Positions 20,170 to 20,505 of a stretch of 64,000 nt of DNA are shown one piece after another. The notes under the pieces are model-generated. The model saw only the letters and a list, made by a program, of their open reading frames with translations. It was not told the DNA's origin and searched no databases. The stretch's first letter is position 1. The number at the start of each line of letters is the position of its first letter. Origin of the DNA: Klebsiella phage vB_KpnM_Wolf_ER13; sequence record PP738762.1. The stretch is one strand, 5' to 3'. Both the position numbers and the translations under genes were made by a program.

Positions 20170-20505
20170 GGGAGCACGTTCTTCCGAGGTTCAACTTCTT
20201 TCGACAGTTCTTTCGGTTGTAGCTCCCGCAAGCCCCTAAGGGTACGATTAAACTCTTATCTGTTGCACACCGTTAGCTTAAAGGTTCCGGGTCTGATTTC
20301 TCAGGGATAAGATATACACCGATGGATGTATAGGCCTTGAGGCGTACTCCCGATTGGCCATCGCCTCGGGGTAGCATGCACTTGCCGTTTATTTCTAGCT
20401 GCACTTTGGTAGCAAATCACCGTTGGTTTCGGATGTTTTACGTGGGGATAACCAACAACGTCCACATCATACGTTACCCATGCGTACACATGGTGGGCGT
20501 ACAAA
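20170..20505 (-). ncRNA. candidate structured RNA or structured 5' leader (GC-rich helix-dense non-coding block)
   Basis: GC visibly ~50% versus AT-rich flanks; multiple perfect helices (GGGAGC..GCTCCC 20171/20221; TCTTATC..GATAAGA; GAGGCG..CGCCTC; GTTGGTT..AACCAAC; TATACA..TGTATA); no convincing ORF; strand inferred from flanking minus-strand genes. Confidence 0.4.

Follow-up and report, generated by a model that had tools for sequence, protein, structure and literature searches.

T4-like phages are among the best-studied viruses, and their genomes are thought to be almost entirely protein-coding. Structured RNAs known from phages include the put sequences of HK022, which act in cis and are composed of two stem-loops, and group I introns, which usually exceed about 145 nt. 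In T4-type phages, PeSL cassettes combine an early promoter with a simple stem-loop and are present in many copies per genome (Arbiol et al. 2010, PMC2839356; Comeau et al. 2014, PMC4122927). Here we describe an RNA element, termed the core, that lies on the minus strand at 20249-20391 of a 64,000-nt stretch of Klebsiella phage vB_KpnM_Wolf_ER13 (record PP738762.1; this whole stretch is called the window). It occupies 143 nt (about 145 nt) of the spacer between rIII and gene 30.9 and, judging from sequence comparisons, is apparently an undescribed, highly conserved and mobile structured RNA. A preliminary description, made from the letters of the window, had pointed to positions 20170-20505 as a GC-rich, helix-dense block without a credible open reading frame (ORF) and had proposed a structured RNA, a long regulatory leader or a small intron. 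The first of these proposals is borne out by a multi-helix fold and a tertiary kissing loop, both backed by covariation, while the block itself turned out to be a mosaic of at least six separable modules rather than a single element. We found no published description of the core in work on the rIII/30.9 region, in the PeSL papers, in surveys of phage structured RNAs or by searching for literal sequence strings, subscription-only papers on the T4 31-30 region being outside the scope of this search.

A blastn search with the 336-nt block matched 414 of 50,697 phage records, and in the T-even phages of E. coli, Shigella and Yersinia the match was limited to a core of about 135 nt with 93-95% identity. 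When the spacer of the window was aligned with those of SA21RB (Tequatrovirus ime09), VR5 (Dhakavirus), PS2 (Muldoonvirus), CF1 (Moonvirus) and T4, the core stood out as a near-identical island in otherwise unalignable surroundings and was cleanly missing from T4. The core of the window shares 92-95% identity with the copies in SA21RB, VR5 and CF1 and 84% with that of PS2, as compared with 65-76% for gene 31 and 71-77% for rIII in the same four phages. A covariance model (R1), built from 14 sequences, identified a single copy in the window (20251-20389, 174 bits) and was positive downstream of rIII in 15 of 40 IMG/VR rIII loci, with T4 negative; about a third of the sampled T4-like rIII loci carry the core. 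A filters-off search with the covariance model of the 26 core-negative rIII loci, including T4, returned nothing under E = 0.17. The divergent members are locus L025 (130 bits), Erwinia phage Cronus (128 bits), PKM.Lu.22.1 (124 bits) and E. coli phage EcS1 (92 bits), of which PKM.Lu.22.1 is a 76-kb Grimontviridae phage and lies outside the T4-likes. A metagenome scan contributed 13 extra copies, all of them near-canonical and T4-like. The loci L008 and L065 were rejected as relatives of the core, being chance pattern matches within coding sequence. On the host side, blastn gave no match among 5,426 complete E. coli genomes and one exact two-anchor core pattern had no match in the GTDB genomes (one per species); as far as tested by these E. 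coli and GTDB searches, the core does not appear to be host-derived.

The presence or absence of the core is clean in two unrelated lineages. T4 and SA21RB, both Tequatrovirus, are distinguished at this position by an indel whose ends are those of the closing helix P1. PKM.Lu.22.1 is 98.1% identical genome-wide to Salmonella phage PKM.Hi.22.6, and here the core is a clean insertion of 148 nt (40944-41091 of the PKM.Lu.22.1 record), again bounded by P1 and missing from PKM.Hi.22.6. It is one of five segments specific to PKM.Lu.22.1; two of the other four contain HNH homing-endonuclease genes and the rest small ORFs, and a look among these segments for a partner gene co-inherited with the core yielded nothing informative. 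In PKM.Lu.22.1 the core starts 12 nt past the stop codon of a protein with an SSB-like DFDDDCPF tail, and is followed by a small hairpin (module c, see below), an intrinsic terminator and an ECF-like sigma-factor gene, a gene context which argues that the RNA is not tied to rIII or 30.9. Taken together, these genome comparisons show the core to be an optional module that is exchanged between phages. The two Grimontviridae phages constitute a natural near-isogenic pair and differ mainly by free-standing HNH endonuclease genes. In PKM.Hi.22.6, the DNA polymerase gene is split into two coding sequences (CDSs; 45260-45640 and 46345-47715).

In order to look for compensatory changes, a check already envisaged in the preliminary description, homologues of the core were aligned with MAFFT without reference to structure (alignment A5; 25 distinct sequences with 10-nt flanks). 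In this alignment the 44 nested pairs are 95.6% paired and 24 of them have changed on both sides; 0 of 500 column shuffles matched the alignment in any of five measures, and when the partners were slid by 1-3 columns just 27-44% remained paired. With the kissing loop included, the 48 pairs of the model are 96.2% paired and 26 are compensatory, with 0 of 500 shuffles equal and 29-43% paired in the slid controls. Diversity is limited, with many sequences at 90-100% identity and few divergent ones. As the shuffle controls ignore phylogeny, more weight is due to the slid-partner control and to the number of independent pair types. According to this analysis, the core is an RNA domain of the gene-sense strand that is self-contained and folds independently. 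Its covariation-based fold leads from P1 into a junction with P2, P3 and P4, the last of which bears a three-way junction with P5 and P6. All coordinates below are on the minus strand, and core positions are numbered as n = 20390 minus the window coordinate.

The closing helix P1 (UAAAC/GUUUA) pairs the core's own 5' and 3' ends and covaries. It measures 5-9 bp and its sequence differs from lineage to lineage, with CUUAUAGC/GCUAUAAG, CAAACAGC/GCUGUUUG or CAUAC/GUAUG taking its place elsewhere. The unpaired strand J1/2 (GGCAAGUGCAU; 20376-20386) is invariant in the 25 sequences except for U/G at one position. P2 (core 15-48; 20342-20375) is a long bulged hairpin of 12 pairs, 97.7% paired and with five compensatory pairs, in which CCCGA/UCGGG is replaced by CUCUA/UAGAG or CGGAU/AUCCG and C16-G47 by A-U or U-A; in divergent sequences it is seen to be extended by G15-C48, N16-N47 and N17-N45. 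The linker J2/3 (CUCAAGGCC; 20333-20341) consists of an invariant GGCC and a remainder CUCA(A/U), and P3 (core 58-77; 20313-20332) is a hairpin of seven pairs, 99.4% paired and with four compensatory pairs. The 6-nt loop of P2, L2 (CGAUGG; 20358-20363), pairs with L3, the loop of P3 (CCAUCG; 20320-20325). This kissing helix, GAUGG/CCAUC, is paired in all 25 sequences and its end pairs are compensatory, with G-C, U-A or A-U at one end and G-C or A-U at the other. A sixth kissing pair, C27-G70, is C-G in 16 sequences and U-A in nine, and in EcS1 the loop-loop helix, inspected by eye, reaches 8 bp.

The P4 domain (core 78-84 with 130-136; 20254-20312) encloses P5, P6 and the strand J6/4 (GCAACA; 20261-20266). 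Four of the seven pairs between the P4 strands UCUUAUC (20306-20312) and GAUAAGA (20254-20260) are compensatory, as are three of four pairs in the variable P5 (core 86-97; 20293-20304), which has the loop GAAA. P6 (core 98-123; 20267-20292) carries a conserved 15-nt loop, L6 (GAACCUUUAAGCUAA), and its pair A98-U123 has become U-A in Erwinia phage Cronus. About 45 unpaired nucleotides of the core are nearly invariant. Modelling suggests that an additional helix, P1a, may form between GGC of J1/2 (core 4-6) and GCC (core 55-57; 20333-20335), which would produce a perfect four-way junction. The P1a pairing is present in the centroid fold, and both of its sides are invariant. Early pseudoknot ideas (GGCG/CGCC and GGCC/GGCC) were dropped in view of the P2 extension and the L2-L3 pairing seen in divergent sequences, and neither a J2/3-L6 pairing (AAGG/CCUU) nor a U10-A53 pair is kept consistently.

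The helices singled out from the window alone fared differently. TCTTATC/GATAAGA corresponds to P4 and TATACA/TGTATA to P3, both supported by compensatory changes, and GTTGGTT/AACCAAC is stem 2 of a covarying pseudoknot outside the core (module M). GGGAGC/GCTCCC belongs to a hairpin that is kept at its position with differing sequences in other phages. GAGGCG/CGCCTC can form in most sequences (92% paired) yet is not the pairing that has been preserved, since it is the competing helix P2 that compensates when its first base changes. In the SA21RB record, a predicted "rho-independent terminator" (L002:1221-1259) is really a part of P2 and J2/3 and coincides with this GAGGCG/CGCCTC helix.

The block had also been called helix-dense, which folding energies do not support beyond chance: its minimum free energy z-score is -0.79 in sense and -1.26 in antisense orientation, so that folding energy alone would have dismissed the finding. 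For the 143-nt core alone the values are -2.03 sense and -0.93 antisense. Within the proposed core pairs, G-U occurs in 59 cells of the alignment and A-C in seven, and this excess, together with the sense-strand z-score of the core, places the RNA on the gene strand. The claim that the block lacks an ORF was upheld, as no reading frame is conserved on the minus strand at about 20140-20505. Indels of 1-2 nt in the core disrupt every frame, which also speaks against a diverged coding remnant with shuffled codons, and EcS1 and the window do not read the shared segment GGCCUAUACA in the same frame. A protein-coding gene or remnant was rejected: no frame is conserved, and variation is concentrated in paired positions and compensated. 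Two "hypothetical protein" CDSs, of 38 and 34 aa, are annotated within spacer and core in the record of the related phage vB_KpnM_TU02 (L001:1557-1789).

Comparison with known RNA classes gave no assignment. A cmscan of the whole window against the 4,227 families of Rfam 15, group I and group II intron models included, returned nothing at gathering thresholds; at E <= 10, positions 19800-21000 and the copies of Cronus, PKM and LZ9 gave just chance-level hits and terminator look-alikes. ARAGORN found neither tRNA nor tmRNA in the whole window. A group I intron, suggested earlier in an ORF-less form, was rejected: the model RF00028, which would detect the conserved catalytic region (P3-P9 with the guanosine-binding site in P7), gave no hit at gathering score or at E <= 10; no gene is interrupted, as rIII matches phrog_1457 over its full length and ends in its own stop codon and 30.9 has its own start and ribosome-binding site, and T4 has both genes without the element; and the outer helix joins the element's own ends, with flanking "exons" that are unrelated between lineages. 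A described riboswitch class was likewise rejected in the absence of an aptamer model match in Rfam 15. In all contexts a hairpin with a U-rich tract follows 20-110 nt downstream of the core, with other modules in between, and it is unchanged in phages without the core. A PeSL cassette does not apply either, for the spacer has no promoter-like site on the minus strand and the 64 kb contain a single copy each of the core, module c and module M. A MITE or an IS200-IS605-type element was discarded because the P1 arms vary and covary and the insertion flanks have no common motif.

The remainder of the spacer is itself structured. T4-like spacers are mosaics in which the same small modules recur in changing order, the order in the window being hpA, M, c, core, hpB and a long hairpin (all on the minus strand). 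Directly after the rIII stop codon lies hpA (20473-20502), a hairpin read from sequence as GUACGCCCACCAUGUGUACGCAUGGGUAAC, which in Erwinia phage Cronus is located downstream of the core. It is followed by M (20422-20472), an H-type pseudoknot with the stems GUG(G)/(C)CAC and GUUGGUU/AACCAAC, which is supported by covariation in alignment A8, a hand-made alignment of 17 sequences that leans towards the model. On A8, 88% of cells are paired, with at most 49% in slid controls, and there are 36 double-change cells against 11.8 in shuffles. M is present in all 17 rIII-30.9 spacers aligned, including that of T4 (L006:3130-3185, minus strand, approximate), where the record has no annotation over it. 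In Jiaoda-, Muldoon- and Kanagawavirus-type spacers it precedes the core, whereas in Tequatro-, Dhaka-, Mosig-, Moon- and Roskildevirus it lies downstream. M may be the actual conserved leader of the very basic protein encoded by 30.9. For the core, a role as a long leader of this protein, one of the earlier suggestions, is unlikely, given that the same RNA occurs in the Grimontviridae context and that the distance and order of the modules vary.

Module c (20395-20421) is a small hairpin, GGUGAUUUGCUACCAAAGUGCAGCUAG, that recurs in T4 and VR5, where it stands directly behind the stop codon of rIII, and in both Grimontviridae phages. Its 3-bp stem covaries by eye (CGC/GCG, UGC/GCA, CAC/GUG), and the consensus GGUGAUUYGCUACC..AGUGCRGCU is found in T4-likes and in both Grimontviridae phages (L070:848-876; L084) just past a stop codon. 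Sharing of c across families suggests that intergenic RNA modules are exchanged between unrelated families independently of the core. Within the window c and M are each single-copy, which distinguishes them from dispersed repeats of the PeSL type. Past the core, hpB (20229-20242) is a small GC hairpin ahead of an invariant GCUUG (CCCUUAGGGGCUUG); GGGCTTG is invariant in alignment A1, T4 included, and in L025 and EcS1 hpB lies upstream of the core. The long hairpin GGGAGC...GCUCCC, followed by AUGUAUUUCU (20170-20227), is situated just upstream of the 30.9 ribosome-binding site. Every T4-like spacer has a hairpin at this pre-30.9 position, with sequences such as GGUGGAG/CUCCAC, GGAAC/GUUCC and GGCGA/UCGCC; in T4 it is GCAGG/CCUGC followed by UUUU, and the T4-type versions are terminator-like. 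The hairpin at 20170-20227 was not called by the terminator scan, and it may be a weak terminator or attenuator.

Further modules were seen in other spacers. T4-type spacers (L002:1085-1175, L003, L006) contain a structured module X of about 85 nt, GAGGAGCCGUCGAACUGUC...ACGGUGUACCUC, which the window is without. The inner hairpin of X is compensated in the Mosigvirus copy L069, where AAUGAUU/AAUCAUU has become AUCGAUU/AAUCGAU. The extra small hairpin modules GUUGCCGGAAGGCAAG and GAGAGGUGAAAGUCCUCUC occur beside the core in some spacers (L054:2006-2075; L014; L025), which marks the locus as a hotspot of hairpin gain and loss.

The window is that of a Klebsiella T4-like phage (Jiaodavirus). The 7 kb surrounding the element are 98% identical to Klebsiella T4-like phages, the 461 nt flagged here are 100% identical in vB_KpnM_GF, KpnM6E1 and others, and vB_KpnM_TU02, which is closely related, has been assigned to Jiaodavirus jd18. 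All genes around the locus are on the minus strand, in the order 31 (20870-21193), rIII, spacer, 30.9, and the block is co-directional with 31, rIII and 30.9, in keeping with the operon setting assumed at the outset. The flanking genes had been called 30.9-like and 30.8-like and have to be renamed. Upstream lies rIII (20506-20754), which encodes the lysis inhibition accessory protein of 82 aa (phrog_1457, E 1.6e-40; GenBank annotations of relatives), and downstream the homologue of gene 30.9 (19963-20139), which encodes a very basic protein of 58 aa (phrog_1427, E 2.2e-33). From comparison with T4, 30.9 probably starts at ATG 20139, yielding MAKQAKAK as in T4. The ORF list begins it at ATG 20169 (MYFSKMEDDKMAKQ...), and T4-type comparison favours 20139. 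With this start the non-coding spacer (20140-20505, about 366 nt, from the rIII stop to the 30.9 start) is about 30 nt longer than first delimited.

As had been noticed, the GC content rises in the spacer, yet the rise is modest (0.46-0.51 versus about 0.38-0.43 in the flanks). A promoter scan found no minus-strand promoter-like site in the spacer, and the sole intrinsic terminator called on the minus strand is the one after 30.9 (19958-19937, or 19927-19958). Transcription of the core as an internal part of a 31-rIII-30.9 transcript is implied by its position. The homologous T4 spacer is unannotated, in line with the earlier remark that no T4 feature is known here, and T4 has rIII and 30.9 both intact without the element and retains the same hairpin downstream as well as the leader of 30.9. 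A T4 late-promoter motif (TATAAATA) occurs at the very end of gene 31, in the 31-rIII spacer (20755-20869, minus strand), and is followed by a GC-rich paired leader (GGUGGAUGCCCGAGCUAAACCUCGGUUACCGUCCACC) before rIII.

We posit that the core is an accessory RNA that binds a conserved partner in trans, either a protein or a ligand, and that it constitutes an aptamer- or decoy-like "RNA gene", a reading to which we assign a probability of roughly 0.45. The partner would be encountered in the infected cell and could be a small ligand or else a protein, of the host or of the phage. With the kissing loop holding the junction in place, the invariant nucleotides of J1/2, J2/3, L6 and J6/4 would be displayed in the manner of a riboswitch aptamer or a protein-binding decoy, and the core would leave rIII and 30.9 uncontrolled as far as alternative pairing with neighbouring sequence is concerned. 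Such an accessory RNA gene would ride in a transcribed spacer, possibly being freed by processing. It is the most economical reading of an autonomous fold with about 45 invariant unpaired nucleotides that occurs in unrelated contexts and appears uncoupled from an expression platform, the latter being suggested by the identical downstream hairpins that T4 and PKM.Hi.22.6 keep without the core. It is doubtful whether the RNA is, more specifically, portable cargo traded among virulent enterobacterial phages in the form of an aptamer-like decoy for a conserved host component, acting as a counter-defence or host-takeover factor; candidate targets of such a decoy would be RNA polymerase, a protein of defence or RNA decay, or a nucleotide used in immune signalling.

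Several points weigh against an accessory RNA with a trans partner. The trans-acting function is deduced purely from anatomy and distribution. A terminator-like hairpin and a gene always follow the core, an arrangement that would also suit a cis-acting read-through element. Diversity is low (82% mean column identity over core and flanks) and several lineages are near-identical, so that some of the compensatory counts reflect shared ancestry, and recent horizontal spread rather than constraint could be partly behind the high conservation. A search for complementary targets of the conserved loops within the 64-kb window found none; this does not identify the partner, and it argues against antisense action on nearby phage mRNAs.

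A cis-acting element for transcription read-through, like HK022 put or Bacillus EAR, is an unlikely alternative. The nascent core would bind its own RNA polymerase and render it resistant to downstream terminators, be it the hairpin before 30.9, the terminator after 30.9 or the terminator preceding the sigma-factor gene in PKM.Lu.22.1. An element of this type does not have to pair with neighbouring sequence and is therefore portable, which agrees with the movable cassette that we observe and with its constant location inside a transcription unit, 5' of a terminator or terminator-like hairpin and then a gene. Binding to the conserved enterobacterial RNA polymerase would suit the extreme conservation. 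However, the hairpins or terminators and the genes downstream are the same in T4 and PKM.Hi.22.6, which lack the core, so read-through there is independent of it, and no likeness to put or EAR in sequence or structure and no Rfam match was found.

It is rather improbable that the core serves in mRNA processing or stability, as part of a structured rIII 3' untranslated region (UTR) and 30.9 5' UTR. In that case the modules would block exonucleases or direct RNase E or RNase III cuts and thereby set the half-lives of the rIII and 30.9 messages. In every T4-like phage, hairpins and pseudoknots follow one another along the entire spacer, and the PKM and T4-type modules lie in a 3' UTR with a terminator at its end, both as expected for such a role. 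Simple hairpins would suffice for it, though, whereas a kissing-loop junction with about 45 invariant unpaired nucleotides exceeds what a barrier needs, and T4 does without the core.

We consider a catalytic or selfish RNA, be it a small self-cleaving ribozyme of a new type or a minimal element resembling an intron, to be very improbable. The clean presence and absence would then reflect the element's own mobility, which is suggested by clean indels in two unrelated lineages rich in homing-endonuclease indels, and the pseudoknotted, highly conserved fold has a ribozyme-like complexity. Against this, the known models of ribozymes and introns give no match even at E <= 10, no gene is interrupted, the flanks are wholly different between lineages with no conserved splice-site or guide pairing visible, and about 145 nt is below the usual size of group I introns. 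Scarcely credible, finally, is a DNA-level site (protein-binding site, recombination site or transposon end) or a decayed coding remnant, which could be read from the small hypothetical CDSs that some GenBank records call inside the core and from the resemblance of the closing helix to terminal inverted repeats in DNA, yet is contradicted by P1 arms that covary, unlike conserved transposon ends, by the strand asymmetry of G-U pairs (59 vs 7), by 1-2-nt indels that break every frame and by 26 compensatory pairs that include a loop-loop contact.

The core thus means that a T4-like spacer hosts a folded RNA more conserved than the neighbouring genes. Its clean gain and loss provides natural experiments, namely T4 without and Tequatrovirus ime09-type phages with the core, and PKM.Hi.22.6 without and PKM.Lu.22.1 with it. 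If the core does bind a ligand or a host factor as an accessory RNA, RNA would have to be added to the accessory and counter-defence "genes" of phages, and intergenic RNA modules would be seen to be traded between unrelated phage families. A decoy, if true, would represent a type of RNA-based factor that has yet to be described from T4-like phages. There is also a consequence for annotation practice, as spurious small CDSs and a "terminator" are currently placed over the core.

With the group I introns of T-even phages (td, nrdB, nrdD) the core shares the character of a structured RNA insertion that is patchy among close relatives, but it lies outside genes, has no RF00028 match, is closed by a helix of its own and is shorter. 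HK022 putL/putR and Bacillus EAR are, like the core, portable structured RNAs inside transcription units and upstream of terminators; the core differs from them in its fold, no similarity was detected, and core-less phages keep the same terminators. PeSLs are, like the core, short conserved intergenic modules of T4-type phages that are tied to insertions, deletions and shuffling (PMC2839356, PMC4122927), whereas the core is single-copy, has no promoter match and adopts a complex covarying fold.

ROOL, GOLLD, raiA and OLE resemble the core as conserved, pseudoknotted, covariation-backed orphan RNAs, some of them phage-borne. The core is far smaller (about 145 nt), is restricted to Enterobacterales phages, is without sequence or model similarity to these RNAs, and lies in an operon spacer whereas they stand alone. 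From purine and lysine riboswitches the core is set apart by the extra P4-P5-P6 domain, by the lack of an Rfam match and by the apparent absence of an expression platform coupled to P1, the distance to the next gene being variable and filled with modules. In other respects these riboswitches are similar to it in architecture: they too have a closing P1, conserved junction strands and two neighbouring hairpins with pairing loops, the loop pairing pre-organises the junction, and their size range and degree of conservation are similar to those of the core.

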